DNA from: Gammaproteobacteria bacterium
GTDB taxonomy: Bacteria; Pseudomonadota; Gammaproteobacteria; GCA-001735895
Length of the DNA: 53,603 nucleotides
Assembly: GCA_050298595.1 (NCBI GenBank)
Contig: JBNKUM010000033.1
Coordinates: forward strand, 1-53,603
Reading direction: 5' to 3'
Within the stretch, counting starts at the first letter, position 1; each line of letters starts with the position of its first letter. Under the pieces are notes generated by a model, which was not told the origin of the DNA, did not search any database, and was given only the letters and a program-made list of their open reading frames with translations. The position numbers were made by a program, and so were the translations under genes. Below, one piece after another: positions 8,965 to 42,682 of the stretch.

Positions 8965-10271
8965 ATCTCTATCCGCTGATTGCGCTTTATTTCAGTCGCC
9001 AGACTGTCAAAAACACCAGCTGTATTCGCATAATCCGGCCAGCGACTTACAACTTCCTGAACCTGATCGATAATCTGCCTTGCCTGTTGTTTAAAATTAC
9101 CGATCAGAGCTGCTACCGCCAGCAGATCGGCACGACTAAAACCATCACGTTTTCCATTCAGGCTCATCTGATGCGCATTCACCCAGGGAGAATCCTTTTT
9201 ATAGCTATAGGCTAGATCAAAGGCCGGTGCCAATCGCCAGGAACCCTGCATGGAATCGAGCACAAAACCAATGTTTTTACTGTGATCATCATGGTTACGT
9301 GCAATCACGTTAAATACCATTCGCCGAAAAATTTCCACCGCATCCTGACGCGGTAATCTTAACCGGCGTGCAACAGCGAGTAATTGTTCATAACTGTAAC
9401 TACCCGGCCTCTTATAATCCGCATGATCCATCGCACAAAAAGAGGCATAGTGCAGTTTACGGTTGCCCTCACGATCAAAACGTCTGGTCATAAAATGCGC
9501 ACGCTGACCATCGATTAGCAATTCACTGGGTGAGATATTGATATCACAATCCCGCGCCATCAGATAGTAAGCATATTCCATACGCCCAAACCCCTGCGGA
9601 TCACCAAACACCTCGCTATTGATTTTATGCTCTTCTACCCCATCAAACTTGAGCAGAAAATGTTCAAAACCCTCTGGTGCATCTACCTGCCCGGAACGAA
9701 TTTCTGTACGCTGTTGATTCACTGCCACCAGCGCCTTGGCGCGTGCACCACCTGCTGAAGTACCCACCTGAAATAGCGCGCTCATGGCCTCATCATTTTC
9801 CTGCTGTAGATCCACTGACTGCCTGAGATCGGCTCGTTGATCAAGTATCTGCTGGGCCATAGCAACCAGAGATTCCAGTTCTATCTGTTGATTTAGTGGT
9901 GAGCTATCACGAATAGCAGGCTGGAACTCCAGCGCCCCCATCCCTCGATTACCGCTGTACAACAGGCGCTCAATGGCATTCAATGAATTAGCATCGCGTC
10001 CATTTCTGATCAGCCAGGCATTAATCACTGAATTACCAAAATCATCGGGCAAGGTATCGCTAAAAACCGCCGGCAGGCCACGATAGGTTTGCGGGTTTAA
10101 ATCGTTGAACTGGTATATTTTTGTTGATCGCGGCATATGCAACGGTGCGATTTCTGTTCCAGTAGCAAGCCACTGTGGCGCATATTCAAATCGGCTGATC
10201 CGGGTTTCCTCATCATAGGCCAGGGCCCCAACCAGATGCCCCCATAGATGAACTTCTGCCAGGTTCTGCAT
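8961..10271 (-). CDS. hipA: HipA-family Ser/Thr kinase toxin
   Basis: Couple_hipA N-terminus, SAGGARAK, LLKFD, RRFDR, NHDDHSKN, LAPAFD. Confidence 0.93.
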   Translation of the reverse strand: MQNLAEVHLWGHLVGALAYDEETRISRFEYAPQWLATGTEIAPLHMPRSTKIYQFNDLNPQTYRGLPAVFSDTLPDDFGNSVINAWLIRNGRDANSLNAIERLLYSGNRGMGALEFQPAIRDSSPLNQQIELESLVAMAQQILDQRADLRQSVDLQQENDEAMSALFQVGTSAGGARAKALVAVNQQRTEIRSGQVDAPEGFEHFLLKFDGVEEHKINSEVFGDPQGFGRMEYAYYLMARDCDINISPSELLIDGQRAHFMTRRFDREGNRKLHYASFCAMDHADYKRPGSYSYEQLLAVARRLRLPRQDAVEIFRRMVFNVIARNHDDHSKNIGFVLDSMQGSWRLAPAFDLAYSYKKDSPWVNAHQMSLNGKRDGFSRADLLAVAALIGNFKQQARQIIDQVQEVVSRWPDYANTAGVFDSLATEIKRNQRIEI

Positions 10272-26724: not shown

Positions 26725-27297
26725 ATGTCTTTAAATCGTCATTTTTTAACCGCCCTGACCGCAACCGCCCTGCTATCGGTTTCATCCTTGCAGGCTGAGC
26801 AAGTCAATCAGGGTGAATTAAAAAAAGAAGCCATCAACCTGGTTAAACAGTTCGGTGGTACGCTCAAACCAGAACTTAAAAAAGCTCTGAAAAGCGGTGG
26901 TCCTGCCCATGCCATTGGCATCTGTTCAGAGAAAGCACCCGAAATCGCTAAAAACCTGCGCGATTCAAGCGGCTGGTATATCAAGCGCGTCAGTCTGAAA
27001 GCTCGCAACAGTAGCTCTGCAACCCCTGATAGCTGGGAGCAAAAGGTACTAAAACAATTTGACGCACGTCAGGCCAAAGGCGAGTCAGCCGAAAAAATGG
27101 CCTATTCAGAAATTGTTGATGGCAAGTTCCGGTTTATGAAAGCCCAGGGTGCAGGAAAACTATGTCTGAACTGTCACGGGGCCGAAGTAACACCAGAAGT
27201 AGAAGCGGCTCTTAAGGAAAAATATCCAGACGATAAGGCACGTGGCTATAGCCTCGGTCAGATTCGCGGTGCCTTCAGCCTCGCTAAAGACCTGTAA
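26725..27297 (+). CDS. DUF3365 (Tll0287-like) periplasmic c-type heme protein
   Basis: Signal peptide; AIGIC, RVSLKARN, PDSWE, CLNCHG, YPDDKARGY, RGAFS; GGAG RBS before ATG 26725. Confidence 0.9.
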   Translation: MSLNRHFLTALTATALLSVSSLQAEQVNQGELKKEAINLVKQFGGTLKPELKKALKSGGPAHAIGICSEKAPEIAKNLRDSSGWYIKRVSLKARNSSSATPDSWEQKVLKQFDARQAKGESAEKMAYSEIVDGKFRFMKAQGAGKLCLNCHGAEVTPEVEAALKEKYPDDKARGYSLGQIRGAFSLAKDL

Positions 27298-27310
27298 AAC
27301 CTTCATCACT

Positions 27311-27346
27311 AATCCTGCGCCAGAAACCCTTCTGGTGCAGGATTTT
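27311..27346. terminator. Terminator between convergent genes
   Basis: AATCCTGCGCCAGAA/TTCTGGTGCAGGATT stem followed by T residues. Confidence 0.65.
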
Positions 27347-27361
27347 ATAACCCAAAATTTC

Positions 27362-27868
27362 TCACTTCTCAGCGATCACCACCGACCACCAGGGTCCTGC
27401 CGATTTACCTAGCAAAGCCGCCCAGTACCAGGCCGACACATCACTCCAGCTATTACCGGCATCATCATAGATGCGTTCATACACGCGCAATGAATCCTCA
27501 CCCCGGCTTGCCAGAAACTGACTCCATTTAGCCTCACCAGATCGCGTTGCCAGTGGCAATGGGCTAATCGAAAAACCCACCCCGCGTAGACAATCACTGG
27601 CCGGATGCAGTTTACGCGTAGGACTGAATACCCAGCGCAGGATATATTCACGCCGACCATCGCTAAAACGCTGAATACGTCCGGGAAAATCGCGTACAAA
27701 AAGACGCTCCTTTTCACTCAGTAGCAGCGGCTTGAGTAGTTGCCCCTCCAGCTGTGTTGGCCAGCCGGGAAAAGCCTGGGCACTGGACTCAAGCGCCGAG
27801 CTGCCAGCGAACAAGGGCAGCACTGCTGCACATATGCAAAGCAATAAATAGGGGATCAGGCGGGACAT
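27362..27868 (-). CDS. Exosortase-associated exported protein
   Basis: GAGG RBS and ATG at 27868; signal-like N-terminus; FPGWP, FPGRIQRF, RKLHPASDC, WSDVSAWYW. Confidence 0.75.
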   Translation of the reverse strand: MSRLIPYLLLCICAAVLPLFAGSSALESSAQAFPGWPTQLEGQLLKPLLLSEKERLFVRDFPGRIQRFSDGRREYILRWVFSPTRKLHPASDCLRGVGFSISPLPLATRSGEAKWSQFLASRGEDSLRVYERIYDDAGNSWSDVSAWYWAALLGKSAGPWWSVVIAEK

Positions 27869-28659
27869 AGTACAGACCTCGGAGCAAGCCTGTCGGCTAA
27901 CCACAGAATAGCCACTGCGGCAGCGATAAAAGTAACCATACCCACCCCATCGTGTGCCCAGGCAGGCATAGCAATCAGACCTGACTCAATATAAAACAGC
28001 GCCGTGGCGCGCAAGATATTGGCCGCGATAATAATTCCCAGTGTCATCGAGCTGAGTGCAACCAGTCTAGCCAGGTGCATACGGTACACACAGGCTAGAG
28101 TAAAACACAGATAAAAGCCAAACCACATCATCTTAATACCGCTACAGGGCGCATCAATCGATACCGCCCCTCCATCCCAGTTCAGTAACGTTCCAGTATG
28201 AGTTACCGCCAGTCCATTCAGTTGCAGCAAATGCGCCGCCAGATTACCCACCAGCCAGCGTAGTGGATAACCCAGAAAAAACTGTAAAGACGCCATCACC
28301 GGCAAAGACAACAGCAACAAACCCCACAGCGCCGGAGATAAACCCCTGCCCAGAAAATACTGCGAGCATAAAACCCCCAGCAGGGTAATAGCGATAGCAG
28401 CACGAAAGATGGGTGGCAGGAATACATAACTGCACAGATAAACCAGCATCAACAGGCTAAGCGTGAGCAATGGAATCCGTGCCTGCCTGTCATTAGCTCG
28501 CTGATTCAGCAGATAGCCAATGGCAGTAATCAATGCCAGCACACCAAATTTCTCATCCGAGCTATCCAGCAGACGACTCGTATACCATTCAAGCACAGGC
28601 CACAGTGCAAGCAGGCTGGCACTGAACAATAGTGTCATTTGATTTGGTTTTAAGTTCAT
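27856..28659 (-). CDS. Exosortase/archaeosortase-family transpeptidase (XrtQ-like)
   Basis: About 8 TM helices; Cys-Arg-His triad in IDAPCSG, ANILRA and HDGVG. Confidence 0.88.
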   Translation of the reverse strand: MNLKPNQMTLLFSASLLALWPVLEWYTSRLLDSSDEKFGVLALITAIGYLLNQRANDRQARIPLLTLSLLMLVYLCSYVFLPPIFRAAIAITLLGVLCSQYFLGRGLSPALWGLLLLSLPVMASLQFFLGYPLRWLVGNLAAHLLQLNGLAVTHTGTLLNWDGGAVSIDAPCSGIKMMWFGFYLCFTLACVYRMHLARLVALSSMTLGIIIAANILRATALFYIESGLIAMPAWAHDGVGMVTFIAAAVAILWLADRLAPRSVLCPA

Positions 28660-31106
28660 GCGCTAAAGCGCCCAGTATTTATAAGCATGTGTCGCCGCTT
28701 GAGCGCCCAGCCCAGCATCACCAGAGTAGCGATGATCAATAACCAGGTTTCTGGTTCCGGTATCGTCGGTACCGTGCCTTCCTCCACTGGCTGTAATCCA
28801 TTCGCATCATATTGCTGCTGATTCTCCAGTACGACCGCACCACTCACCGGGGTTACTAGTTGATAACGCGCCGCTATCTGGATCGCCCTTTTTCTCTGTT
28901 CGATAGTGCCTGCAGCAATCAACGCCTGAATACGATCATAGGCCCACAGACGCAGCAGATGATCCGAGATTAGCTGGCCAGAAAATTTAAAATCACTGCC
29001 TGCAATCTCGTCGCGTATCGTATTCCATTGCTGATGCTGACCGCTCCACAGAGCAAATTGATAGGATAAATCCTGTTGCAGATTAGCAATACGCGCAACT
29101 GGCTTAAACTGAACCTTCTCATCCAGCGCTTCAGCAATTCGGTTCACCTTGCTAGCGACTGGAAAATCATATATCTCTGGCCCCTTTGGTCGACGTTGCC
29201 AGTTTTGGCGCAGATTATCGACTGTCGTCAACATCACAGGCTGTGGACCATGTATCCACAACAGAGCCGAGTTTTGATACCGTGACGCCACTGACCAGGC
29301 GTATTCAAGTGCAGGCGTATTATCGACCCCACCGACAAAATCGAAATCCCTCAAACGCTGTGCAAGCTGCCTTGGCAGAGAAAAATTGGCAGCATCAATC
29401 CCTGCGCTCAATTCACTGATTTCATCGCCCGCAACAATCACAGTCAGTCCGAAAGACTCCGGCAGCTTCAGGATAGCATCGGCAATCTGATCGCTATAAT
29501 CCTGCATGGATTGAGAGCCATCGATCACCATCACCAGATGATCAATCTTCACACTGCGCTTAACCAGGCGTTGCCTCACCACGGATTCTGCTTTGATCCG
29601 ATTATTCAATGTATGAACCTCTGTCACTTGACTATCACGCGAAACCAGCACCGCATTAGACGGACTTTTTAATCCTGCATCATCCAGCTTACCGCGTAGT
29701 GTGGCAGCGCCCGAGTTTCCTGATTCAAGTATCAGGTGGGTTCGCTCACTGCGCATGGTGGCTTTAGAATCCAGCCACAGCGAATGCTGAAAATCATCGG
29801 CAATACTAAAATTTTGCTGTTTGAAAAACGGCAGGCGCAAAATCCCCTCGCTTGCATCCCTGATCACCAGCGGCGCAGTCATTCCAATGCGAGCCTTGAT
29901 CTTGCCGCCAACAGGAACCGGGAACAATTGCACCAGCACGGTATCAGGCCCTGCCGTGGTCACCAGAATCGGATCACGCTGTCGCCTCACTACCGACTGG
30001 TAAGCCTGACGCGCCTGCCCCTTAGCAGCAAAAGCTGCCTCGCGTTCTTCTCCATCAATCCACAGGGTAACCCTCGACACCACTGCACCTGGCGGTAATG
30101 CTATCTGAGCACGCGCCTCAGCCTGACGAAGCGATTGATTACTGAATTCGAAAGTCCACTGCAGATAGGCAAACGCAGCATCGCTATCTATGCTGCCATC
30201 GATCTGCGAGCTACTGAGTTGCACATACTGCAACTTTTTACCGACAGACGCCCCACCCTGATCAAAATCAAAATTGAAGCGGCGTGAATTTTCCATCAGG
30301 CCGAGTCTGCGATAGCTAGCAAACTCCTGCTCGTTGAACGCCTGTCCAGTAACCCGGTAATACACTTCACGCACCTTATCAGGGCCTACCCAAGGCTCAT
30401 TCCAGCTGTAAAGCATCGACAACAAATCGCGTGATCTCCTGCGTTGATCGTAGCAATAAGCCAATAGACGATCATGGTTAGCGAAGTTACGCAGCAAACG
30501 CACACCACGCAACTGATGTGCATGATCTTCTGATGTCGCCATGCGCAGACCGACCTCGGTGAGTGTCAGCGGAATTTCAGCAGCAATCAAAACGATTAAT
30601 CCCACCAGTATTCCCGCCGGATAAAAGCGTCCATCCTGAACCGTTAATGAAGGTATGGGATCTGTAATTGCGGGTGATGGTATGGCGCTGCGACACCTGA
30701 TCGCAGCAATCAGTGAAAGTATCGGAGCCAAAGGCAGAAAACCAATCAAAAAGATTATCCCAATCACAGCCATCGGCATAATCGGAATAAACAACACGCT
30801 GTAAAACGCGCTAACGACGATAGCGATACCATTCAGGAATAATATCCTGCGTCGGCTGGACTGAAAGCGCCCCCAGCTTGCCAGCAATGCAAGCAGATTG
30901 GCCAGAGGTACCACAGCTACCAACAGCCCATGCAGCAAGGTAGGTATAGGGTCGAAAAATGACTGTTCACACCAGGCAAACAACACTTCAATAGCTAACG
31001 CGACCAGTGGTAAAACAATACCAAAACTGATGACATAGAAAATCTCAACCGCACTCAATATTTTTCCACCGGTGCTCGGATTTTTTTGTATTTGCTCTGT
31101 GTTCAT
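28656..31106 (-). CDS. Integral-membrane VIT + vWA protein with C-terminal PEP-CTERM sorting signal
   Basis: About 5 N-terminal TM helices; VIT motifs EARAQIALPPGAVVSRVTLWIDGEEREAAF, RDPILV, FPVP; MIDAS DGSQS; C-terminal IPEPETWLLIIATLVMLGWALKRR. Start 31106 with GAGGA RBS. Confidence 0.9.
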   Translation of the reverse strand: MNTEQIQKNPSTGGKILSAVEIFYVISFGIVLPLVALAIEVLFAWCEQSFFDPIPTLLHGLLVAVVPLANLLALLASWGRFQSSRRRILFLNGIAIVVSAFYSVLFIPIMPMAVIGIIFLIGFLPLAPILSLIAAIRCRSAIPSPAITDPIPSLTVQDGRFYPAGILVGLIVLIAAEIPLTLTEVGLRMATSEDHAHQLRGVRLLRNFANHDRLLAYCYDQRRRSRDLLSMLYSWNEPWVGPDKVREVYYRVTGQAFNEQEFASYRRLGLMENSRRFNFDFDQGGASVGKKLQYVQLSSSQIDGSIDSDAAFAYLQWTFEFSNQSLRQAEARAQIALPPGAVVSRVTLWIDGEEREAAFAAKGQARQAYQSVVRRQRDPILVTTAGPDTVLVQLFPVPVGGKIKARIGMTAPLVIRDASEGILRLPFFKQQNFSIADDFQHSLWLDSKATMRSERTHLILESGNSGAATLRGKLDDAGLKSPSNAVLVSRDSQVTEVHTLNNRIKAESVVRQRLVKRSVKIDHLVMVIDGSQSMQDYSDQIADAILKLPESFGLTVIVAGDEISELSAGIDAANFSLPRQLAQRLRDFDFVGGVDNTPALEYAWSVASRYQNSALLWIHGPQPVMLTTVDNLRQNWQRRPKGPEIYDFPVASKVNRIAEALDEKVQFKPVARIANLQQDLSYQFALWSGQHQQWNTIRDEIAGSDFKFSGQLISDHLLRLWAYDRIQALIAAGTIEQRKRAIQIAARYQLVTPVSGAVVLENQQQYDANGLQPVEEGTVPTIPEPETWLLIIATLVMLGWALKRRHMLINTGRFSA

Positions 31107-31479: not shown

Positions 31480-32250
31480 ATGGACAAAAACACAGAAAAT
31501 TTATGGTCTCGACATCCCTCACTTAAAGACCGCGTCGTATTCATCACGGGTGGTGCATCCGGTATCGGTGCTGACATGGTCAGGGCGTTTGTCGACCAGG
31601 GCGCTAAAGTTGGCTTTCTGGATAGAAACGTCGAGCTCGCCACTAAACTTGTCGATGAACTGGATGGCAACTGCCATTTCGTTGCAACCGATCTGTGCGA
31701 AATCGCCTCGCTCAAACAGTCTATATCTGAATTACAGGACAAGCTGGGGGCTGCCTTTGTGCTGGTCAATAACGCCGCTAATGATGACCGCCATGACTGG
31801 CAATCAGTGACCGCAGAGTACTGGGATGAAAGAATGGCGACCAATCTTCGACATCAGTTTTTTGCCATCCAGGCCGTGGCGCCGGGCATGATTGAACGAG
31901 GAGAAGGCTCGATCATCAACCTGGGGTCAAATTCCTGGTGGGAAGCCGGAGGAGGATTCCCTGCGTATGCCACAGCCAAGGCCGCAATACATGGCCTGAC
32001 CCGAACCATGGCCAGAGACCTGGGGCAGCATGGTATTCGCGTAAATACCGTAGTCCCCGGATGGATCATGACTGAGCGTCAAAAAGAACTCTGGGTCACT
32101 GATGAATCATTGGCTGCTCATCTCAAACGCCAGTGCCTGCATACCCCCATCGACCCCATATACATCGCCCGTATGGTGCTATTTCTAGCCTCCGATGATG
32201 CCCGCATGTGCAGCGCCAGTAATTTTATGGTAGATGCCGGTTCTATTTAA
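31480..32250 (+). CDS. SDR-family oxidoreductase, aldose (xylose/sulfoquinovose-type) 1-dehydrogenase-like
   Basis: TGGASGIG, NNAANDDRH, YATAK, PGWIMTERQ. Confidence 0.9.
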   Translation: MDKNTENLWSRHPSLKDRVVFITGGASGIGADMVRAFVDQGAKVGFLDRNVELATKLVDELDGNCHFVATDLCEIASLKQSISELQDKLGAAFVLVNNAANDDRHDWQSVTAEYWDERMATNLRHQFFAIQAVAPGMIERGEGSIINLGSNSWWEAGGGFPAYATAKAAIHGLTRTMARDLGQHGIRVNTVVPGWIMTERQKELWVTDESLAAHLKRQCLHTPIDPIYIARMVLFLASDDARMCSASNFMVDAGSI

Positions 32251-32324
32251 TCCACAGGCAGTACACTTGCACAGCGATGTCAGCATTGCCATTGATTCTT
32301 TAAAAATACCTTATAATCCAGCGC

Positions 32325-33017
32325 ATGAAAAAAATTCTGATTGTTGACGATGATGCCCATATCCGCGATGTATTAAGTTACGCGCTTAAGAATGAAGGCT
32401 TCACTATCGTCGAGGCGGAAAACGGACGTATTGCGCTGGAGAAATTTACCAGCGAGCAACCTGATCTGCTGATACTCGATATTATGATGCCAGAACTGGA
32501 TGGCATTAGCGTGTGCCGTGAACTGAGAAAATCCCATGCCACGCCGATCATCTTTCTGTCATCACGCGATGACGAAATCGACCGCGTGCTGGGGCTGGAG
32601 TTAGGCGGTGACGATTACATCAGCAAGCCCTTTAGTCCACGCGAACTTGTCGCCAGGGTACGGGCGGTACTGCGCCGTGTGAATCCCAGCGAATCCGCTG
32701 TGCCAGAACCAGACCGCCAGCTACAACAGGGTCAGTTAAAGATCGATCTTGATCAGTTCAAGGTTTTCTGGGGCGAGCAGGAACTCGTCTTTACCGTAAC
32801 CGAATTCGCATTATTACGCACACTGATCCAGCATCCGGGACGGGTATTCAGCCGTCAGGCGTTAATGGATGCCTCCTACGACTTTAACAATGTGGTCAGT
32901 GATCGAACAATCGACAGCCACATGCGCCGGGTACGCGCCAAACTCAGCCAGGCCGGTGCTAACCCGATTGAAACCGTACATGGTGTGGGTTACAAGCTGG
33001 ATGACTGTAAGGGCTGA
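32325..33017 (+). CDS. OmpR-family response regulator (CreB/ChvI-like)
   Basis: REC plus winged helix (RTIDSHMRRVRAKL, IETVHGVGY). Confidence 0.94.
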   Translation: MKKILIVDDDAHIRDVLSYALKNEGFTIVEAENGRIALEKFTSEQPDLLILDIMMPELDGISVCRELRKSHATPIIFLSSRDDEIDRVLGLELGGDDYISKPFSPRELVARVRAVLRRVNPSESAVPEPDRQLQQGQLKIDLDQFKVFWGEQELVFTVTEFALLRTLIQHPGRVFSRQALMDASYDFNNVVSDRTIDSHMRRVRAKLSQAGANPIETVHGVGYKLDDCKG

Positions 33018-33020
33018 TTA

Positions 33021-34613
33021 ATGAAATGGAAGCCACGTGTTCGTAGTATCTTATTACTGGTTAATCTCAGCATTCTGATCTTGCCATTGGCGGGCATTGG
33101 TATATTGCGCCTGTACGAAAACGCCCTGCTCCAGCAAACCGAATCCGAACTCAGCGCACAGGCCGCCTTCGTCGCCGCTGTCTATAAATCAGCCCTGTTG
33201 AGAAACTTTCAACAGTCAATTGAAGGCCCGACTATCGCAAACTATGGAATCCCCTTACCCGACGCTAAAAGCACAAAGCATGAACTGTGGCAGCCCCAGC
33301 CACCTCAACTCGATCTCGCTAGCGATGACATCCTGCCTCCACCGCCAGACCCTGAAATAACGACAGCGCGGATCCCTGCTGCAGTACTGCTAGCCGGTGA
33401 AGAAACCACCCGCATCATGAAAGATGCACAGCAAACCACGCTGGCAGCAATCCGTGTAGTGGATATTAGTGCATCAATCATTGCAACTACCGGCGACGAT
33501 AGGCACCAGTCGCTTGCTAACTGGCAGGAAGTGAACCGTGCGTTAAGCGGAGAGTTCTACTCCGTACTGCGCCAGAGAGTCTCTGATCAGCCAACGCCAG
33601 CGCTGACGTCTATCAGTCGAGGCACTCTGGTACGTATATTCCATACCACTCCGGTTATTCATCAGGGACGCATACTGGGCGCTGTCATCCTTTCGCGCAC
33701 GCCAACCAACATTGGGCAATCATTCTATAAACATCGCTTCGAACTGATGATAGCGGGGTTGATACTAATCGGCCTGGTGCTGGCATTCACTGTCATCACA
33801 GCACTCACTATCACCGCCCCGCTGGAAGCGGTAACCCGACAGGCTAATCACGTTGCTGGCGGTAATCCCGGCCCGGTCACAGCACTCAAACAACCGGTGA
33901 CTTACGAGGTTTCGCAATTGTCACAGGCCGTAGTGAAAATGGCCGAGCACCTGGATGCCCGTGCGCGCTATATACAGGATCTTGCCGCACAGGTATCGCA
34001 TGCCTTCAAGACACCACTGACCTCAATGCGCGGTGCCATTGAGTTATTGCAGGATCATGCGCAGAACATGTCAGAAACTGATCGCAATCGGTTTTTAGGC
34101 AATCTGGATAAGGACGCTGAACACCTGAATACACTGGTGCAACAATTACTGGAGCTAGCGCGTGCTGACACCATCCAGGCAGATCGATCCATCTCATCCG
34201 TACTACCCATTATCGAAAAGGTTTCAGAGAGATTTAGAAGCATGGGTCTTTTCGTAGAGATAACAGGGCGCAATAGCCAGGTAATGATCAACGAGGAAAT
34301 TCTGCAATCGACATTGGTCAACCTTTTTGACAACGCCCATTTACACGGCGGCAGCCACATTGCTGTCTCGCTCACTGAAATTAGCGCAGAAAAACTCTGC
34401 AGTATCAAAATAGCGGATAATGGGCCTGGCGTAACACCTGCCAATAGAGAGACTATCTTTGAACCTTTTTTCACCACCGCACGAGACCAGGGTGGATCAG
34501 GTTTAGGCCTGGCGGTAACCCGATCTTTACTCAAGGCTTATAGAGCGAGTATTGAATTGATTCCATCTGCTAATGGGGCTTTATTTGAGATCAAATTAAA
34601 GGTGGCGGATTAA
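33021..34613 (+). CDS. Two-TM HAMP sensor histidine kinase (CreC-like)
   Basis: H-box SHAFKTPLT, NLFDNA, DNGPG, FEPFFTT, GSGLGL. Confidence 0.92.
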   Translation: MKWKPRVRSILLLVNLSILILPLAGIGILRLYENALLQQTESELSAQAAFVAAVYKSALLRNFQQSIEGPTIANYGIPLPDAKSTKHELWQPQPPQLDLASDDILPPPPDPEITTARIPAAVLLAGEETTRIMKDAQQTTLAAIRVVDISASIIATTGDDRHQSLANWQEVNRALSGEFYSVLRQRVSDQPTPALTSISRGTLVRIFHTTPVIHQGRILGAVILSRTPTNIGQSFYKHRFELMIAGLILIGLVLAFTVITALTITAPLEAVTRQANHVAGGNPGPVTALKQPVTYEVSQLSQAVVKMAEHLDARARYIQDLAAQVSHAFKTPLTSMRGAIELLQDHAQNMSETDRNRFLGNLDKDAEHLNTLVQQLLELARADTIQADRSISSVLPIIEKVSERFRSMGLFVEITGRNSQVMINEEILQSTLVNLFDNAHLHGGSHIAVSLTEISAEKLCSIKIADNGPGVTPANRETIFEPFFTTARDQGGSGLGLAVTRSLLKAYRASIELIPSANGALFEIKLKVAD

Positions 34614-35131
34614 AAATAGTTATTCAGATGCCTCTGACATAAAAACAACTGCTTATCCAGGATGGAAAAATAGTGATAGTATTTAAACTATCGAAAAAAA
34701 TAAATATAAAGGCGTATGGCCATTTTTAACGGAAACAGCGAATTAAAATGGAACTAATCATTAATTTTTTCAAAGATTTACAAATCCAAAAAGTTACCGG
34801 GGGGAACAAAATGGCCAGCCCTCTAATATGTATTTAGAGACCAACTGCCTTTGAATTTTACTGTTAATGCGTATTCAGTGATGAAAATAACTTTATAGTA
34901 AAGCTACCACTTTTAAAGCAAGTGGTTTTGTTACAGATTTTTATAGTAGTAAATCAAAGGTCAGTAACAACCAACAAAAAGCGAAGTTTTTTTATAATCT
35001 GGAAATATAAGAATGAGAAGGAACGAAATTAACGGTTTAACACTTACCTCAAAAGCCTTGCAAGGCTTTCAAAATCAGGCTTCAAAAACCCTGCACTCCA
35101 TAATAAGTGAGCAGTGTTTAATCACTGTTCA

Positions 35132-35196
35132 CATTAACAACCTCCACTGGAAAAACAAAAGCATCGCTATGCTTTTTTCCCCTGTAGATGTTAGCG
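35132..35196 (+). other. Degenerate integron attC-like site 1
   Basis: CATTAAC start, inner IR GGAAAAA-C-AAAAGCAT-cgct-ATGCTTTTTTCC, ends GTTAGCG nine nt before an ATG. Confidence 0.55.
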
Positions 35197-35205
35197 CTTT
35201 AAGTC

Positions 35206-35578
35206 ATGAAACTATCAATACTATCGTTACTTCTCTGTTTCATTATTTTCCTGATTTTAGGGAAAAAGGGTCTTGAGGTTTATTTTCCTTTGGCTCAATA
35301 AATTACACTCACTGGTGATTGCATTTACGCTCTAAGTAATGACTCTTTGATATGTACTTCAGAAAACTGGCTAAAAGGTCATGTAAGTTATTTAGAAATT
35401 GATAAGGTTCAAAAGGAATATTTAAAAGTGCCAGATTCATCATAAATTCATGATGGCTATTTTTTAGTCACGAATAAATTTAACAAAAATATTGGAGATA
35501 GCAGTCACAACTGATAAAGAATTTAAAAAAACTGTTTTTCAAATTAGTCCGAGTCTTATAAGTAAGTATGAAAATTAA
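35206..35578 (+). pseudogene. Decayed AT-rich cassette-like gene (membrane/exported protein)
   Basis: MKLSILSLLLCFIIFLILGKKGLEVYFPLAQ*ITLTGDCIYALSNDSLICTSENWLKGHVSYLEIDKVQKEYLKVPDSS*IHDGYFLVTNKFNK, then a probable frameshift to ...FQISPSLISKYEN*; in-frame TAA at 35299 and 35443. Confidence 0.55.
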
Positions 35579-35584
35579 TATGAC

Positions 35585-35650
35585 TTATAACAATAAGTTT
35601 CAATGGATTTGCTCAGTTCGTTCGCTCTCCATTTAGCTTGGGCGATAGCG
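35585..35650 (+). other. Degenerate integron attC-like site 2
   Basis: TTATAAC-AATAA-GTTTCAATGGA...TCCATTTAGC-TTGGGC-GATAGCG; attC-like spacing with GAT in place of the core GTT. Confidence 0.5.
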
Positions 35651-35751
35651 CGATCAACCACGTGCTTACCCGAGGGATTGGTAAAAGTCGTATCAACTTG
35701 AAAACAATACTTTTTCTTTGCTGATAAACCCAAACAACTAGGAGGTCGACT

Positions 35752-38559
35752 ATGAAAGCACAAGAAATCATGAAAAATGCAAGAGTTCGCTATGATGAAA
35801 AAACAAGTATTCCCAGACGCATTGATTGCCGCGTGGCCGTATCGCCAGGGGACACACCAGAGAAGGCGTCGCTTGCCCTGCTCACTGAGTTAAGCGCCAC
35901 GTTGCGCCTGTCCACTGATAAAAAGGATCTGCAGATCAAACAGAGCAAGACCACCTCCACCGGCTCTTATGTCCGGTTTCAGCAGTACATCGATGGGGTG
36001 CAGGTAGTGGGTGGCGAGGTGGTGGTACACAGCGACCGGACTGGTTTTCTTCGGCGAATCAATGCCAACCATCAGCCCCGGGAGTCGGTGCTCACCACCG
36101 CCAAACAGGAGAAGATCTCGGCGGCCGAGGCGGAGAAGATCATGCGCCGCGCGGTGGGGGAGAATTTCACCATCCGGCCCAAGGGCAAGCTGAGCACCGA
36201 ACGCGTCTATTTCCGCACGGCGGCCGACCTGCGTCTGGCCTGGCTGGTGATTGCCAACACCCTGCAGCCACCCCATGACTGGTACGTCTACGTGGATGCG
36301 GAAAACGGCAGCGTGCTGGCCCTGGAGGACCACATTATGTTCGTTGACGGGCAGGGCATGGTGTTTAACCCCAACCCAGTTGTCACCCTGAACGACAATA
36401 CCATCCGGGAAGGCACCACCGCGGAGGCCACCCTAAATGGCGAACGGCAGACCGTGGTTCTTCGGGATATCACCGGACCGGTGGGCGGCAACTATACCTT
36501 GAGCGGCCCCTTCTGCAATATTGTCAATCTGGCCAACCCTAATATCGGCATTCCCCAGGAAAACAGCGCCACCGGCTTCAACTACACCCGGACGGATGAT
36601 AATTTCGAGGCGGTCAATGTCTATTATCATATCGATTCCCTGCAGCGTTACATCCAGGACACCCTGGGCATCAATGATGCCAACAACCGGGCCATCGACG
36701 CCGACCCCCATGACAACCACATGAACGCTGCCTGGTATTCGCCCTCCACCAAGGATCTGCATTTTTCCGATTCCGGACCAACCCAGCCGGACAGGGCCGA
36801 GGATTCGGACTGCATGGCCCATGAGTACCTCCATGCCATCCAGGATGATATGGTGCCGGGCTGGGGGAATCCGGTGGCGGGGACGACCCGTTATGAGAGC
36901 CGGGCCATCGGCGAGGGCTTCGGCGATATGACGGCGGTACTTTATAATATCCTGCACGGCAACGGCTACCAGCGGCAGGTCATGGAGGACTGGGTTTTTG
37001 TCCATAATAACCTGGGGGACGGCCTGCGGGGTCTGCGGCGGGTCGACCATGACAAGCTCTATTCCGCTTTTGTAGCCGGTCAACTATTCCCAGGGACCAC
37101 TCAATATACCTATTATCCCAACAGCGAGATCTGGTCGGGCGCCCTGTGGAATATCTTTCTGGCCATGGGAGGGGATTCGCCCACCGTAACCGACTGGGAG
37201 GAGCCGAGGGATATCCTGCTCAAGGCCATGATCGCCAGCAACCGGCTGCTCACCACCAGCGCCTCCATGCCCGAGGCGGCCGAGGCGCTGATGAACACCC
37301 ATGAGGAACTGGAGGATCAATGCGGCCGTCAGCTTGTGCCGATGATCGACGAATTCCATGACCGGGAAATCCTCGAGTGCCAGGGCGGCTCCGATATCAG
37401 GCTAACCAGTCTATGGTCCCAGCAGGATAACAGCAGCATCAGAAGCTGGGAGCAGGTGGAGTTTGGTCAGGATAACTGGTTCTATGCGGTAATCACCAAC
37501 CAGGGCGCAATGGCCGCTCGCTCGCTAGTGGTGAACTTCAGCTTCAAGAGCCCCTTCTCCACCCCGGTCTACTCGGCAGATTTCCGTAACAACATCATCA
37601 GCGCCGTGGCCGAATTCGATCTGGCCCCCGGCGAGACGCGTACCATCTGGGGACGCTGGGACAAGGATCTGATCCCGGCCATCCCTGCCGGCCAAACGTC
37701 GCTACACGGCTGTATCCTGGCGGAGATCTATAATCCCGTTGACCATGTGCCAGCCGGGGTGACCAGCATCGGTGCCAGCAACGGCAAGCTGCGCCAGTGC
37801 AACACCGATGTCGTCGATCTGGTACCGGGTGATTCGGCTGATTTCCATTTCACCATCAGCAACTTTCATCTTAAATATGAGGAACTGGTGCGGCTTGAGG
37901 TAATCCGGCCCGACCGCTGGCCAGGGCTCGCAGTCTCCTTCTCCCACCATAATAAGTATGTCATTAGTGAGCTCCTGCAGCAGGCCAGAGAGCTGGCAGT
38001 GCAGCGGGTCAGCGTTCAGGAGGAGATGCTGGCAGTGCAGCAGCCGTCAGTACGTTTCCAGCAGGCGACACGTATCGAAGTGGCGAGCTCCACGCCGGGG
38101 GAACAGATTGTACTGGACCTTGCCCCGAATTCCTCCATGAGACTGAAAACAGCAGCTGTTTCCTCAAAGTCTGCCACATCCCTGGCCGAATTTTCCCGCT
38201 GCGATGCGGTAGCGGTGAAACAGGAGCTGGGCAGCGTCCTGATGCTGAAACCTGGCATCCGCACGGGTTTTGTCTATACCATGAAACCCCACCAGCGCCG
38301 GACGCTAAAGGTCTCGGTCCAGGCGCCGGCAGACGCCAAACCAGGTGATGAGTTCACCGTGGAATTCGTCCAGCGCAATGCCAAGGGTGAGTTCATCGGC
38401 GGCTTTGATGTGCTGGTCCGTGTGGTAGAGAAGAAAAAGACGCCGGTTATTATCAAACCACCGGTCATCCGGGAAAAGATCAATGTGAAAGCAAAGACTA
38501 CTTCCACAGTGAAGAAGACCAGAACCGCCAGGAAACAGGTGGCGCGTAAAAGGTCGTAA
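35752..38559 (+). CDS. M36/M4-like zinc metallopeptidase (FTP/PepSY-like propeptide, catalytic domain, C-terminal Ig/CARDB-like module, basic tail), no signal peptide
   Basis: YVRFQQYIDGVQVVG (FTP-like), VYVDAENGSVL (PepSY-like), HEYLH, GEGFGD, EIWSGALW; AGGAGG RBS. Confidence 0.88.
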   Translation: MKAQEIMKNARVRYDEKTSIPRRIDCRVAVSPGDTPEKASLALLTELSATLRLSTDKKDLQIKQSKTTSTGSYVRFQQYIDGVQVVGGEVVVHSDRTGFLRRINANHQPRESVLTTAKQEKISAAEAEKIMRRAVGENFTIRPKGKLSTERVYFRTAADLRLAWLVIANTLQPPHDWYVYVDAENGSVLALEDHIMFVDGQGMVFNPNPVVTLNDNTIREGTTAEATLNGERQTVVLRDITGPVGGNYTLSGPFCNIVNLANPNIGIPQENSATGFNYTRTDDNFEAVNVYYHIDSLQRYIQDTLGINDANNRAIDADPHDNHMNAAWYSPSTKDLHFSDSGPTQPDRAEDSDCMAHEYLHAIQDDMVPGWGNPVAGTTRYESRAIGEGFGDMTAVLYNILHGNGYQRQVMEDWVFVHNNLGDGLRGLRRVDHDKLYSAFVAGQLFPGTTQYTYYPNSEIWSGALWNIFLAMGGDSPTVTDWEEPRDILLKAMIASNRLLTTSASMPEAAEALMNTHEELEDQCGRQLVPMIDEFHDREILECQGGSDIRLTSLWSQQDNSSIRSWEQVEFGQDNWFYAVITNQGAMAARSLVVNFSFKSPFSTPVYSADFRNNIISAVAEFDLAPGETRTIWGRWDKDLIPAIPAGQTSLHGCILAEIYNPVDHVPAGVTSIGASNGKLRQCNTDVVDLVPGDSADFHFTISNFHLKYEELVRLEVIRPDRWPGLAVSFSHHNKYVISELLQQARELAVQRVSVQEEMLAVQQPSVRFQQATRIEVASSTPGEQIVLDLAPNSSMRLKTAAVSSKSATSLAEFSRCDAVAVKQELGSVLMLKPGIRTGFVYTMKPHQRRTLKVSVQAPADAKPGDEFTVEFVQRNAKGEFIGGFDVLVRVVEKKKTPVIIKPPVIREKINVKAKTTSTVKKTRTARKQVARKRS

Positions 38560-38672
38560 CGCAGCTACATAACAGCAAGGGGCTCGGCCGAACCGGCAGG
38601 GCCTCTGCCTGTTTCCAGGCGGAAAAAAACATGAGCAATACGTTATGAAATGATGAGAGAGAGGCGAAAATT

Positions 38673-41458
38673 ATGACAGATGCTGTTCCTTCCACCCTGT
38701 TTTTTGATCTGGGCGACACCCTGCTCTATTATCAAAACAATCAGGACCGTCTGTATGCTGATTGTCTTGATACCCTGCAGATTCTGCAGCAGAGGGGTTA
38801 CCGCCTGGGCCTTCTATCTAATCAGGCCGCCAGCACCACTGTAAACCAGGTTCTGAACCGGTTGAACAGCCTCGGCCTGCTTCAGTTTATTGAGCAGGAA
38901 CTGGTGACCATCTCCACCGAGATTGCTGGCAATGCAGGCAAGCCGGCTCAGCCTATTTTTGATCTGGCTCTGCAGAAGGCCGGCCACAGCCAGGCCAGTC
39001 AGCAGAGTATTTTTGTCACCGAAACCACAAGTCATATCGCTGCGGCGCGAAGCTATGGCTGGCGCGCCATCCTGAAATGCAACAGCGGTACCTGCCAGCC
39101 GGCTGACGGCGAATGCGCCGTGGGTCTGGCAGGACTGCTTGACCTACTGCCTGCCCTTGGTGATGCGTCCAACACCAATCTGCACCTGTCCCCACGGCCA
39201 AAGGTAGTTGATGGCCTTTGGGCCGTGCCTATAGACATCAGCCGCATTACGGCAAGCCTGACCTTTGACGCCGCCACCTCCACTGGAACCGGCAGCGCCC
39301 TGCTGGAGTTCAAGCTGGGTCGCCACAGCGGCAACCCCATCTTTGATCTGCGGCAGACCATCACCGGCATCTGGATGGAGAGGCAATCCCTGTTGACCAG
39401 GCCGCGCATCATGATTTCGGCGGCGGCACGAATGCCGAGTTGCGGGTTCTGGAGAGGGTGCTTGCGGCAGGCTCGTCCCATCAACTGCAGATAAACTACA
39501 GCCTGGGGGTGCCCCAGGCGCCAATGACTGGCTCCTACCTGCCACAGATCTCATGGTCCGCCGGGCCGCGGCTGATCTTTAATTTCGGCTTCACCGATCT
39601 GGCACCGGGCAGATATCTGGAGTCCTGGGTGCCGGCCAATCTGATTTTTGACCAGTTTGAGCTAATCCTTACCCTGCAGGTAAACAACACGTCCATTGCC
39701 CATAGCCTCATCACCAACGGCAGTGTCATCAGCCTTGGCACCAATCACTGGCAGGCCAGCTTTCCAGCCACTATCTCCGCCTTCTCGCCCCTGGTGGAAG
39801 TGCGGCCTGCCGATTCGGTGACATCACTGTCTGATACCGTGATACTGCCCGGCTCAGGGACCACAATCACCATCGATACCTGGAAAACCCTGGCCAACGC
39901 AGTAAATCTCGCCACCCAGATAAACTACCTCAAGACTTTTCTGGCAGATAATGAAACGGCTATCGGCCCCTATCTGCATGGAAACCGTTTTGTCGCCTTT
40001 ATTCACCAGGGTGGCATGGAATATGACGGCGCCACCACCACCGGCCAGGGACCGCTGCAGCACGAGACCTATCACAGTTGGTGGGGCCGCGGCCTGAAAC
40101 CAGCCAGCCAGCCGGATGCCTGGCTGGATGAGGCCTGGACCTCCTATCAGATCGATACCGGGCCGGTGAGTGTTCCTTTTGAATTTGCCGCAGCATCGGC
40201 GGAACTCTGCCCTCGGAATCCCTGGGTACGTAAGACCGCAGGACTGTCCTATTCCAGCGGTACTGCCTTCTGGCAGGGCATGGCCGGTTTTGCTGGCACT
40301 ACGGCTCTCGACGGCCTCATGAAGGATTTTTATGCCCAAAGGGATGGTAAACCGGTGCGGACCACCGACATTGAGGAATTTCTGCTGCGCCGGATGGGCG
40401 ATCCGCTCATCGTCGATGCCTTTCACCGCTTCGTCTACGGGTTTACCGATCCCTCGCCCGCTCCGGAGGTCTGGCTGCGCGACGATTTCAGTCATAGTGG
40501 CACGGAACAGTGGGAATCCGGTTCCTTCTGGAATTCTCCGGATCTGTGGGTGCGGAACAGCGATGACGATATGCTTACCCATCAGAGTCCCATAACTGGC
40601 TATGATAACTGGATCTATGCCCGGGTTCGCAATCTGAGCACCACCACCGCGGTGGCTCATTTTAGCGTGGCCTTTAACGTCAAACCCTATGCCGGGGTGG
40701 AGTTTGTCTATCCTCAGGATTTTTTACCGGCAACCGCAGCCGCCACCGGTTTTGATCTGGCCCCAGGTGCATCAGTCATCGTCAAGTCCCGCTGGCCCAA
40801 GGCACTGGTGCCGCCGGCCGGTACCCACTCCTGTCTGCTGGCCTCGGTTTTCTCCCGTTCAAATCATCCCCTGTCCAACAAGCATGTCTGGGAACAGAAT
40901 GCCCTGGCTCAGAAAAACCTGACCATCGTCGACGCCCAACCCGATACCTGGGTGGTTCTGCCCTTTGTGGTGGCCAACCGCTGGTCCAGAGCCAGCCTGA
41001 AATACACCCTGGAGTTAGTGCGCATGAAAAAATATGCGGACCTCAAGGCGGAACTCATTTACATCAGTTCACTGGACACCTCCAGGCATGCCCTGAAGAA
41101 GATCACCAGGACCCTGCCTGAGCCAGATATCCGAGAAGTGGAAGAGCTGCTTGCCAGCAGGTATACGGAAGCGGCAAAAAACATCACGCACCGTATCCAC
41201 CATGAGATTATTACGTCAGCGATCCCAGGGAAACTTGATGCGCTCTTCCCTGCCTATAAGGTCCAGTCATTTCCTGCCCGCAGTGATTCTTGCATCTCGC
41301 TTATCCTGGCCCCGCAGTACCATCGGCTCCTGGGGCTGCGCGTCTATGTGCCCAAGGATGCGAAAAAGGGTGATGACATCCATGTCAATCTGGTGAAACG
41401 CAGTGCTAAGACGAAAAAGGTCATGGGTGGCATCGCCATGACCATTCATGTTTCCTGA
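38673..41458 (+). pseudogene. HAD-like domain fused to M1-like zinc aminopeptidase with C-terminal Ig/CARDB-like module; one -1 frameshift near 39372 (real or sequencing error)
   Basis: FFDLGDTL / LLSN / AGKP HAD motifs; GGMEY, HETYH-x18-E, SYSSG. ORFs 38673..39494 and 39440..41458 join as ...TGIW-LDGEAIPVDQ... if one CTGG is restored. Confidence 0.82.
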
Positions 41459-41607
41459 GGGATGAGAGGGGATAGAAGTTATAAAAGTAAGAACTCCTGG
41501 TGTCGAAGCCTGATTTCAATAAGTTGAATGGCTATGAACGAAGCTCAGGCTCTCTTCTCTAACCTATTGATAACAATTTGGGACCCAGGTTTTTGAAAGA
41601 AAATTAA

Positions 41608-41909
41608 ACTAGAATCCTCAGTTGGACAAGTTGAAGTGCGTTTGTAGTGGTGTAGATCAAGGAGTTACAAGGCTTCCGCGTCCTGCTCTCGCCCCTTACC
41701 TATGTCCCTATAGGCAACGTAGAGATACGCCAGTCAAACGTGCAATTCAGCTCGTAGCGGGATTCACCTGTTGGGTTTTCAGCATGGGTACTGTTACTTC
41801 GCAAATACATGGACGCACAGGAGAGGGGCGTGAAAAGATACATCAACTTTAATGGTCGACGAAACCGTGAGTTACCCTCTGACACGAGCGGTCAACTGCG
41901 GAATCCAGG
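41608..41909. mobile_element. Non-autonomous IS1380-like miniature element (302 bp)
   Basis: Ends ACTAGAATCCTCAGTTG and (reverse complement) CCTGGATTCCGCAGTTG, resembling ISEcp1-type CCTAGATTC termini; flanked by ATTAA/TTTAA; no transposase. Confidence 0.6.
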
Positions 41910-41983
41910 TTTAACAGTTTGCTCTTCTGTTTTTCTGGAAGTTTATAAATCATTAAAAAACAAAATATTTCGTCAAGAAATTC

Positions 41984-42005
41984 AAACAGAACGAATGTTC
42001 ATTTT
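41984..42005. promoter_or_regulatory. Possible TetR operator
   Basis: AAACAGAAC-GAAT-GTTCATTTT imperfect dyad upstream of the TetR gene. Confidence 0.35.
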
Positions 42006-42079
42006 TTTCGAAAACTAATCTATACTGCCAAAAAATACAATGGAAATACAGCTTATGAAACTGGTGTGCGGCTAAAACT

Positions 42080-42682
42080 ATGCCTTTCCTGACACGTGAA
42101 GCGCCCAATCCTGAACCAATAGACTGCCGTGTTCTTACCTCAGCTCTAAAGCTATTTGTAAACGATGGTTATCACAAGGTCTCTATCCATGATGTGCAAA
42201 AGGATGCCAACGTCAGTATTGGCTCTATCTATAAACACTTTGGTGGAAAGGAAGGCATAGCCAAAGCCCTCTACCTGCACCTTCTTAATGAAATGAATGA
42301 AATGATGGATTCGGTACTGGAGCAGGATCTTCCCCCTATTGGAAAATGCAACCGTGTTATTCAACTTTTATTTGAATATACTGAAACTCGAACTGAAATT
42401 ATTGCTTTCGTACTTCACTCAAAACATACCGAATTTATCTCTGACCATGCTCCAATTTGTGATGCTGAACCCTTTCAAAAATTACGCTATATCGTGCAAG
42501 AAGGCATGGATTTGGGAGAGATCAAGACATTCGATACATGGGTTGCTACCTCGGCTATATTCGGTGGTGCAATCCGCATGATACATCTGCGCCTGGAAGG
42601 CGTGATTACACAACCTTTACCAGAGCTGTATGACCAGTTGATTCAGACTATCTGGAACGGCATGGCTCAATCAGCACAGTAA
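42080..42682 (+). CDS. TetR/AcrR-family transcriptional regulator
   Basis: ALKLFVNDGYHKVSIHDVQKDANVSIGSIYKHFGGKEGI HTH. Confidence 0.93.
   Translation: MPFLTREAPNPEPIDCRVLTSALKLFVNDGYHKVSIHDVQKDANVSIGSIYKHFGGKEGIAKALYLHLLNEMNEMMDSVLEQDLPPIGKCNRVIQLLFEYTETRTEIIAFVLHSKHTEFISDHAPICDAEPFQKLRYIVQEGMDLGEIKTFDTWVATSAIFGGAIRMIHLRLEGVITQPLPELYDQLIQTIWNGMAQSAQ

Follow-up and report, generated by a model that had tools for sequence, protein, structure and literature searches.

Two signal-less zinc peptidases with a common C-terminal module encoded side by side in a gammaproteobacterial genome

What is the role of two neighbouring genes whose products are zinc peptidases of different families, carry no export signal and end in the same C-terminal module? 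Such a pair lies on the plus strand of a 53,603-nt stretch of DNA (contig JBNKUM010000033.1 of assembly GCA_050298595.1, Gammaproteobacteria bacterium; hereafter the window, by which we mean the whole stretch analysed), where gene 1 occupies positions 35752..38559 and gene 2 positions 38673-41458. A preliminary description, made from the sequence alone, had placed two co-oriented genes here with 935 and, after repair of a frameshift, 929 codons, which the open reading frames (ORFs) and an intact 929-aa allele reproduce exactly, and had regarded them as a foreign, mobile unit held together by the module. We give about an even chance to another reading, in which the pair would be an imported accessory cassette of two cytoplasmic zinc peptidases acting in sequence, with the module working in cis and the pairing being optional.

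Two peptidase families and one C-terminal module

Gene 1 is intact, and its 935-aa product is predicted to be a signal-less FTP/PepSY-M36 metalloendopeptidase with a C-terminal module and a basic tail. Direct reading places a strong Shine-Dalgarno sequence (AGGAGG, 35741..35746, plus strand) 6 nt before the ATG and, because the frame 5′ of this ATG is open for just 8 codons (943 vs 935), no signal peptide is hidden upstream. The propeptide region (35926..36321) consists of an FTP domain at residues 59-104 (PF07504, 36 bits against a cut-off of 21, E 6.1e-9) and a weak PepSY match at residues 121-190, which stays below threshold (15.6 bits vs 24, E 0.021). It is followed by the M36 catalytic domain at residues 293-521 (36628..37314; PF02128, 37.9 bits vs 23.3, E 1.6e-9), whose zinc site HEYLH (residues 357-361) lies at 36820-36834; H357, E358, H361 and the downstream glutamate ligand E388 are invariant in 45 aligned relatives. 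Full-length relatives number 59 among the matches listed. The NCBIfam models of M36 enzymes that depend on the type IX secretion system, myxosortase or rhombosortase are far missed (21-32 bits against cut-offs of 885-1700), a NEW3-type NPCBM_assoc match falls short as well (14.6 bits vs 24.4), and phmmer returned no solved structure for gene 1. The gene 1 copy of the module, a tandem beta-sandwich at residues 533-891 (37348..38424), was delimited with BLASTP, a module hidden Markov model (HMM, E 2e-115) and a profile (2.2e-114). Finally, translation and alignment show a Lys/Arg-rich tail of 44 residues (38425..38556), which gene 2 does not have.

Gene 2 belongs to a different catalytic class, as the preliminary description had already recognised: the M36 domain of gene 1 scores above its Pfam cut-off, while gene 2 would encode a HAD hydrolase fused to a two-domain M1-fold aminopeptidase and the module. 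In the window it is split into two overlapping ORFs. The 5′ piece (38673..39494, 273 aa) encodes the HAD domain (~38694-39107) and then, from ~39180, the first part of the M1 N-domain, and meets a stop after the frame changes; the 3′ piece (39440..41458, 672 aa) holds the rest of the M1 N-domain, the M1 catalytic domain and the module. The HAD match is above its cut-off (PF00702, 28.3 bits vs 26.4), the best NCBIfam model being a REG-2-like HAD-IA below cut-off, and the nucleophile Asp, the motif II Ser, the motif III Lys and the motif IV Glu are each present in 45/45 relatives. The M1 match of the 3′ piece is faint (PF01433, 12.9 bits vs a cut-off of 27.7; 24.6 bits in the relative P0315). 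HExxH-X18-E (H465, E466, H469, E488), with HETYH at ~40061-40075 and the zinc-ligand Glu at ~40130, is invariant in 66 relatives, as are M450, E451 and Y452 of the G-G-M-E-Y sequence found at the exopeptidase-motif position. In M1 enzymes the exopeptidase motif is GxMEN, so that the gene 2 family has Tyr for Asn. The 3′ piece has at least 809 relatives, nearly all labelled "hypothetical", and the HAD fusion occurs in about half of the relatives (51 of the best 119 are at least 900 aa long). HAD-less homologues at two loci adjoin a separate histidine-phosphatase gene (His_Phos_1; L024:9092-9613 and L022:3386-3922), as if the phosphatase function were supplied in trans where the fusion is missing.

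The fold of gene 2 was modelled on P0122, its nearest intact orthologue (89% identical over the 672-aa piece), together with 66 relatives. The model is a single confident body, with a predicted local distance difference test (pLDDT) value of 88.3 and a predicted template modelling score (pTM) of 0.89. Residues 170-594 superpose on the N-domain and catalytic domain of M1 enzymes (Z 28-30, root-mean-square deviation (rmsd) 3.3-4.2 Å, 350-380 residues), and the top Foldseek match is a two-domain M1 enzyme of Deinococcus radiodurans (E 4e-18, probability 1.00). No helical C-terminal domain of the ERAP1_C or LTA4H_C type was found in P0122, the remainder being beta-sandwich. The possibility that the first sandwich is the equivalent of M1 domain III was considered and rejected, since 50 of the 50 alignments listed end at about residue 594, before the module.

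The C-termini of the two proteins are homologous: BLASTP aligns residues 533-891 of gene 1 with residues 348-671 of the gene 2 piece (368 columns, 26% identity, 79 bits, E 4e-19). The seven pairs of C-terminal motifs that the preliminary description had aligned by eye are exact, and the module HMM recognises both kinds of protein with E-values from 1e-115 to 1e-152. The gene 2 copy extends over piece residues 348-672 (40481..41455; module HMM 1.8e-144, AlphaFold2 (AF2) and Foldseek). Folded alone with AF2, the module of about 330 aa gives two beta-sandwiches and a disordered linker (pLDDT 70); Foldseek relates it to adhesin, integrin-leg and transglutaminase C-terminal sandwiches (E ~1e-6, template modelling (TM) scores of 0.2-0.3 for the two-domain unit), and the profile found no solved structure beyond a chance match at 0.22. 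Its invariant residues are D1, W23, N43-W44, N51, H116, C118, Q144, N146 and G316-G317. The nearest clusters in a protein atlas are named CARDB/COG1470. CARDB itself (PF07705) matches neither window protein; among relatives it reaches 21.7 bits in P0316 (cut-off 22.7) and 70.8 bits in P0340, which carries multiple copies.

The preliminary description had proposed building an HMM of the shared region and cataloguing the enzymes fused to it. A profile search of 1.84 billion representatives yielded 1703 module proteins at E ≤ 0.001, with 162 at ≤ 1e-30. Among the best 150, the parts that precede the module are M1-like cores with or without HAD, HAD alone, M36, S8 subtilase, M14 carboxypeptidase, C13 legumain-like and M12-like domains, as well as fused M12-like and M1-like regions, two unknown groups, and C1 papain-like enzymes with a lipoprotein-type signal and a partial module; long secreted PA14/VWA proteins contain partial module repeats only. 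P0263 and P0315 (1214 aa) unite a reprolysin-like HExxH region, an M1-like core and the module in one protein; judged by sequence, the core of gene 2 is here naturally fused to an endopeptidase-like part. A module that is shared by no fewer than six unrelated classes of hydrolase, and whose full form is nearly confined to signal-less proteins, asks for a common explanation, be it stability, substrate capture or localisation.

Export signals and the arrangement of the two genes

Signal-like cores were defined as a 10-residue Kyte-Doolittle mean of at least 2.0 within the first 45 residues. In the window proteins the maximum is 0.64 (gene 1) and 1.27 (gene 2), and neither has a hydrophobic N-terminal core, in keeping with the preliminary description. 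The same holds for their relatives: a signal-like core occurs in 0/58 full-length gene-1-like (M36 plus module) proteins, compared with 32/53 other M36 matches of the same search. The gene-2-like proteins flagged (18/112) are only marginal (2.0-2.23), with 14 of 18 inspected on acidic beta-strands of the HAD or N-domain. Full-module representatives yielded 3/36 marginal cases (2.05-2.08), while 9/24 representatives with partial or repeated copies have strong cores (2.5-3.7). At the level of sequence, the signal-less state is thereby shown to be family-wide. The "GG + hydrophobic + basic" C-terminal tail was considered as a GlyGly-CTERM-like sorting signal and rejected, because its hydrophobic part corresponds to the final beta-strand, gene 2 has no tail and there is no N-terminal signal. 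Fusion to HAD is typical of cytoplasmic enzymes, and we infer a cytoplasmic location for both peptidases.

Alternatively, the two proteins could be exported proteases for nutrient acquisition or for work at the cell surface, leaving the cell by a signal-free route (type I-like secretion, vesicles or lysis) and anchored by the CARDB-like module to the surface or to a polymeric substrate. The signal-like cores of the other M36 matches would suit this explanation, as would the fact that the NCBIfam M36 models matched are all sorting-dependent, the partial modules in giant signal-peptide proteins with PA14 or VWA domains, and the interpretation of CARDB on peptidases as a cell-adhesion domain in passages of PMC2605481 and PMC4631099. 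Nevertheless, we consider export unlikely: effectively none of the full-module proteins, and none of the 58 gene-1-like ones, has a signal, gene 2 carries the HAD domain, and its protein ends where the final beta-strand does and has no sorting-like tail at the C-terminus; moreover, no transporter or secretion family is found among the 25 commonest Pfam families of 118 neighbouring genes. A more far-reaching idea, which we hold to be distinctly unlikely, is that the module marks an unrecognised class of signal-less hydrolases (M36, M1-like, S8, M14, C13, M12-like, HAD) sharing an undescribed Sec-independent delivery or a recruitment to one cellular structure or substrate; the pair would then be a self-contained two-step cassette for destroying proteins, exchanged among bacteria and possibly serving against other cells or in phage conflicts.

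Whether the two enzymes belong together was addressed from both sides. Among 25 genome loci with a gene 2 relative, an M36-plus-module gene lies directly upstream in seven, five of them close relatives and two from Acidobacteriota, in which the M36 catalytic part is only 38-42% identical. Another partner, C1, a signal-less HExGH protein of about 700 aa that occurs in several phyla and has no module, takes this place in a further 7/25 loci, often with the small C5, and a reprolysin-like protein with a signal-like N-terminus does so in 2/25. Altogether, a HExxH protein stands directly upstream in 14/25 loci (seven M36 and seven C1). The gene 1 side was surveyed by a metagenome scan, from which 80 loci were kept (12 with M36 plus module and 68 with the catalytic part only). 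Gene 2 follows directly downstream in 2/7 assessable loci of the 12 (L054 and L058, with a gap of 3-7 nt by ORF calls); in the other five the M36-plus-module gene is solitary and has no neighbours in common. The order M36-then-gene-2 thus recurs in Desulfobulbaceae-type metagenome-assembled genomes (MAGs), in Acidobacteriota and on two metagenome contigs, and the loci show that pairing is, as far as gene order reveals it, a recurrent but optional operon arrangement. A functional link of gene 2 to an endopeptidase is nevertheless suggested by the 14/25 upstream HExxH genes, the 3-7 nt gaps and the 1214-aa fusions.

The preliminary description had gone further and proposed that the two enzymes, through their common module, assemble with each other or are targeted together as a single proteolytic machine. 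The same module does occur on both proteins, each of the two pair-bearing genomes examined (the window's and the acidobacterial G041) has exactly two module genes, next to one another, and the pair recurs in distant lineages. However, 18/25 gene 2 loci have no M36-plus-module neighbour (4 of them not assessable upstream), the genomes G042-G045 have one solitary module gene each, the partner C1 is module-less and the M36-plus-module gene is solitary in 5/7 loci. The two modules of the window are just 26% identical and belong to separate enzyme-type groups: in a quick tree of 75 rows, supported by SH-aLRT only and made after dropping the rows not classifiable as one enzyme type, modules group mostly by enzyme type and not by locus, the window-type M36 module standing on a long branch. 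Gene conversion between paired modules was not seen on this tree. One HAD plus M1-like protein, P0273 (973 aa), carries a module that groups with the window-type M36 modules, which suggests, from its position on the tree, a module exchange between the two enzyme families and counts in favour of co-assembly. No support was found for a hetero-assembly of the two peptidases, and we judge it very unlikely; with 7/25 and 2/7 loci paired and four solo genomes, the notion of a unit held by the shared module is not supported. Among the findings that the preliminary description had named beforehand as speaking against it, solitary homologues and a pair not conserved as a unit were encountered in part, while homologues with signal peptides and C-termini of separate origin were not. 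Instead, the solo genomes, the grouping of modules by enzyme type, the high pTM of the whole chain and the occurrence on at least six unrelated hydrolase classes all argue for a module acting in cis.

Foreign origin of the pair and loss of gene 2

The peptidase pair differs in composition from its surroundings. Its GC content is 0.57, compared with 0.454 in the remaining window; 1-kb windows between 36001 and 41000 have values of 0.55-0.60, and the adjoining ones 0.38-0.47. At third codon positions (GC3) gene 1 reaches 0.72 and gene 2 0.66, against 0.48-0.57 in the flanking genes. The line counts on which the preliminary description had based this contrast (42/60 G+C in line 36121 and 20/60 in line 19681) are exact. 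A full-length homologue of gene 1 is present in 0/13 genomes of the same genus and in none of 27 further relatives; in the congener G011 only another M36-like gene was matched, and weakly (1.1e-9). Both flanks, namely a response regulator and histidine kinase on the left and a TetR gene and onward on the right, are kept on a single contig in the congeners G001 and G010, with which synteny stops at ~34724 and resumes at ~41988. Between them, these two genomes have 17.8 kb and 6.4 kb of other DNA, with an ADH / ChrR-cupin / SCO1 / MauG-type / SBP56 cluster. The interval from histidine kinase to TetR is therefore a variable slot (window 34724-41988; L043 on G010:C89 and L044 on G001:C2). The window's genome, G000, has most of the ADH/SBP56 cluster on another contig (L134, G000:C99), which includes 4.8 kb at 94% identity to that of G010 and shows no similarity to the window. 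For both genes the nearest relatives, at 80-92% identity, lie next to each other in MAGs of Desulfobulbaceae, Thermodesulfobacteriota and "Proteobacteria", where the GC content of the pair (0.58-0.63) is near that of its own flanks. Composition, the lack of a full-length homologue in all 13 congeners and the variable slot show, on genomic grounds, that the pair was horizontally acquired and is accessory.

In this respect the earlier claim of a foreign, mobile pair stands for the origin but not for the mobility. The locus yielded no integrase, the window contains no tRNA, neither direct nor inverted terminal repeats of a convincing kind border the pair, and 72,556 plasmid records, the only records covered by that search, contain 0 full-length homologues of either gene.

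Gene 2 has lost its reading frame through a 4-nt deletion at 39370..39373 (plus strand), located by alignment with five intact relatives: these read CTGG(C/T)TGG, and the window has a single CTGG, one copy of the doublet being lost. The split products occur in three slightly differing sequence variants, on contigs of 290722, 63216 and 18397 bases. An intact 929-aa protein, P0390, is 672/672 identical to the downstream piece of the window and reads GIWLDGEAIP across the deletion site. Contigs from the sequencing runs X3, X4 and X5, the last an independent salt-marsh run, carry the extra CTGG behind 39370 and are intact, and X1, possibly the window's own source, is the sole run of the four public ones without it. 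The frameshift is therefore polymorphic, a very recent loss at the level of the strain; the same contigs led us to reject an assembly artefact or an old pseudogene. For this genome, the pair is thus an imported and dispensable cassette, with an intact first gene and, already, a disrupted second one in the sequenced strain.

A patchy, imported pair in a variable slot, one of whose enzymes has a zymogen logic that would suit an abortive effector, might also be a conflict or defence cassette, in which two latent proteases are set free upon infection or to act on competitors. Three Smithella-type loci do have a CAP12/Pycsar-type TIR gene directly downstream of the gene 2 homologue (L013:12071-13225 and matching genes in L016 and L025; Pfam 9.3e-34, PDC-S35 4.8e-38), and a few neighbours match type I restriction-modification, mad2 or PDC candidates. 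The TIR gene apart, each defence-type match concerns only 1-2 of the 118 neighbours, which come from 22 loci and of which no family recurs in more than three. PADLOC-DB 2.0 returned 0 families for gene 1, gene 2, the intact orthologue and the partners C1, C4, C5, C28 and C36, sensor, NTPase and nucleic-acid domains are missing from both genes, the plasmid records hold no copies, and gene 2 is dispensable in this strain. A defence role is accordingly highly improbable, and the neighbourhood survey showed no recurrent defence or secretion context. Least probable of all is the maturation of a ribosomal natural product, in which the endopeptidase would cut most of a leader, the M1 enzyme trim the rest, as EryP, an M1 peptidase of class III lanthipeptides, does, and the HAD domain remove the phosphate left by a kinase-type synthetase. 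The endo-plus-amino logic fits, EryP is among the structural matches (Z 27.0, E 1.7e-16) and radical SAM proteins are found in 2/118 neighbours, but many housekeeping M1 enzymes score at least as well as EryP, genes for a precursor, a synthetase or a transporter do not recur beside the pair, and the pair of the window stands alone.

Several other features accompany these genes. In the window, the pair lies alone between two spacers. The left one (34614..35751), from the histidine-kinase flank to gene 1, is AT-rich (GC 0.33) and contains short interspersed repeats at 34598-34866, 35134-35185 and 35571-35656, with copies of 69-92% identity on other G000 contigs and in several congeners; the independent run X5 bridges 34543-36112. 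The right one (41604..41917), likewise AT-rich, carries an interspersed element of about 50-300 nt that is repeated dozens of times in G000, G001, G011 and G012, has a contig depth of 50-200x baseline in four runs and shows many internal variants and joints; it looks like a miniature inverted-repeat transposable element. A stable RNA stem-loop (38525..38622, plus strand; inverted repeat and fold, -53.9 kcal/mol, z -5.93, equalled by 0/200 shuffles) covers the last part of gene 1 and the spacer of 113 nt between the two genes. An intrinsic terminator on the plus strand was considered here and discarded, as an A-run and not a U-run follows; the stem-loop may be a processing or stabilising element. 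Rfam families at E ≤ 0.1 were absent from 34000-42500, and promoter- or terminator-like sites were not more frequent than in shuffles. Further GC-rich stretches lie at 27001-31000 and 32001-34000 (0.50-0.53 against a window background of ~0.44). The genome also has two genes weakly similar to the FTP/M36 part of gene 1, at G000:C119:3654-4721 (E 3e-8) and G000:C15:11324-11779 (E 3e-7), in open frames of 744 and 1136 aa. Finally, the recurrent partners of gene 2 relatives have no Pfam family above threshold: C1 and C5 are exemplified by L018:6609-8735 and 8799-9095, C5 (99-149 aa) standing between C1 and gene 2 in four loci, and C4 (~300 aa; L011:12239-13120) lies downstream of the gene 2 homologue in four loci. 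Single-protein queries did not find C1 or C4 in the window's genome.

Possible mode of action and comparison with known systems

In the reading that we favour, of an imported cassette of two cytoplasmic peptidases, gene 1 would be made as a latent M36 endopeptidase whose FTP/PepSY propeptide serves as a built-in chaperone and inhibitor. After processing itself, the protein would cut other proteins or long peptides, the products of which the M1-fold aminopeptidase encoded by gene 2 would trim from their N-termini; the HAD domain of gene 2 would probably remove a phosphate or similar group from the substrates or products. The module would serve the polypeptide to which it belongs, by stabilising it, binding its substrate or covering its active site, and would not be what joins the two proteins; in the gene 2 product it occupies the place of the later domains of four-domain M1 enzymes. 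The sequential action and the roles of the module and of HAD are what we infer from the architectures, the loci and the models described above.

A number of observations weigh against this picture. Elsewhere, exported proteins are the usual setting of FTP/PepSY propeptides, M36 enzymes and CARDB-like domains, the sorting-dependent nature of every NCBIfam M36 model matched points the same way, and the signal scan was a heuristic based on hydrophobicity and not SignalP. Motif I of the HAD domain is D-L-G-D-T: the residue at Asp+2 is Gly in 42/45 relatives, where canonical HAD phosphatases have a second Asp, so that phosphatase chemistry is not assured. The intramolecular role proposed for the module derives from a predicted pTM and from its distribution. 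As to sequential action, 5/25 gene 2 loci have no peptidase neighbour despite at least 8 kb of upstream DNA. In addition, BLASTP found no match (E ≤ 1e-3) between the reprolysin-like regions of the 1214-aa fusions and the separate neighbours C1 and C36, and the recurrent endopeptidase partner is therefore a matter of HExxH-type chemistry and not of homology. CARDB, lastly, is described as a predicted cell-adhesion domain in the portion of PMC4631099 that deals with it.

A parallel in terms of logic is the tricorn protease, which with its interacting factors F2 and F3, both M1 aminopeptidases, forms a cytoplasmic cascade of endopeptidase followed by aminopeptidase. The window pair would follow the same order of endopeptidase and M1 enzyme, and factor F3 is among the best structural matches of the gene 2 core (Z 29.1). 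It differs from the tricorn system in that the endopeptidase is a zinc enzyme made as an M36 zymogen, the genes are accessory and their pairing is optional.

With the fungalysin-type M36 peptidases, including the bacterial sorting-dependent forms, gene 1 has in common the FTP propeptide, the M36 domain and the HExxH site with its downstream Glu. Unlike the described bacterial M36 enzymes, its clade lacks a signal peptide, and the C-terminus consists of the module and the basic tail in place of a sorting signal. The module, for its part, shares the beta-sandwich fold with the CARDB and NEW3-type domains that follow peptidase or glycosidase domains, and weak Pfam matches to CARDB and NPCBM_assoc are seen in gene 1 and relatives; architectures of the form peptidase-(CARDB)n have been published, as sections of PMC2605481 and PMC4631099 report. 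It departs from CARDB in that its two sandwiches form a constant unit with a distinct set of invariant residues, in that the window proteins stay under the Pfam cut-offs, and in that the full module is found on signal-less enzymes, whereas the described CARDB proteins are interpreted as surface or adhesion proteins. The literature searched contained nothing on signal-less bacterial M36 enzymes, HAD-M1 fusions or this module; both enzymes come from familiar catalytic families, but two architectures thus appear to be undescribed: a whole clade of M36 zymogens without export signals, and a large family of two-domain M1-fold peptidases, often fused to HAD.

For the latter, the nearest structural counterpart is the two-domain M1 enzyme of D. 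radiodurans (PDB 6A8Z, 6KOY and related entries, as named in the fold-search listings). Both have the N-terminal beta domain and the thermolysin-like catalytic domain, and both are without the helical C-terminal domain of PepN and ERAP, while HExxH-X18-E is present in gene 2; Foldseek gives TM scores of 0.63-0.66 on the target, and the superposition Z 28 with an rmsd of 3.9-4.2 Å over ~370 residues. On the other hand, sequence identity is only ~15-16%, gene 2 does not reach the Pfam M1 threshold and has G-G-M-E-Y in place of G-x-M-E-N, and its family adds to this common core a HAD domain in about half of the members and, always, the 330-aa module.

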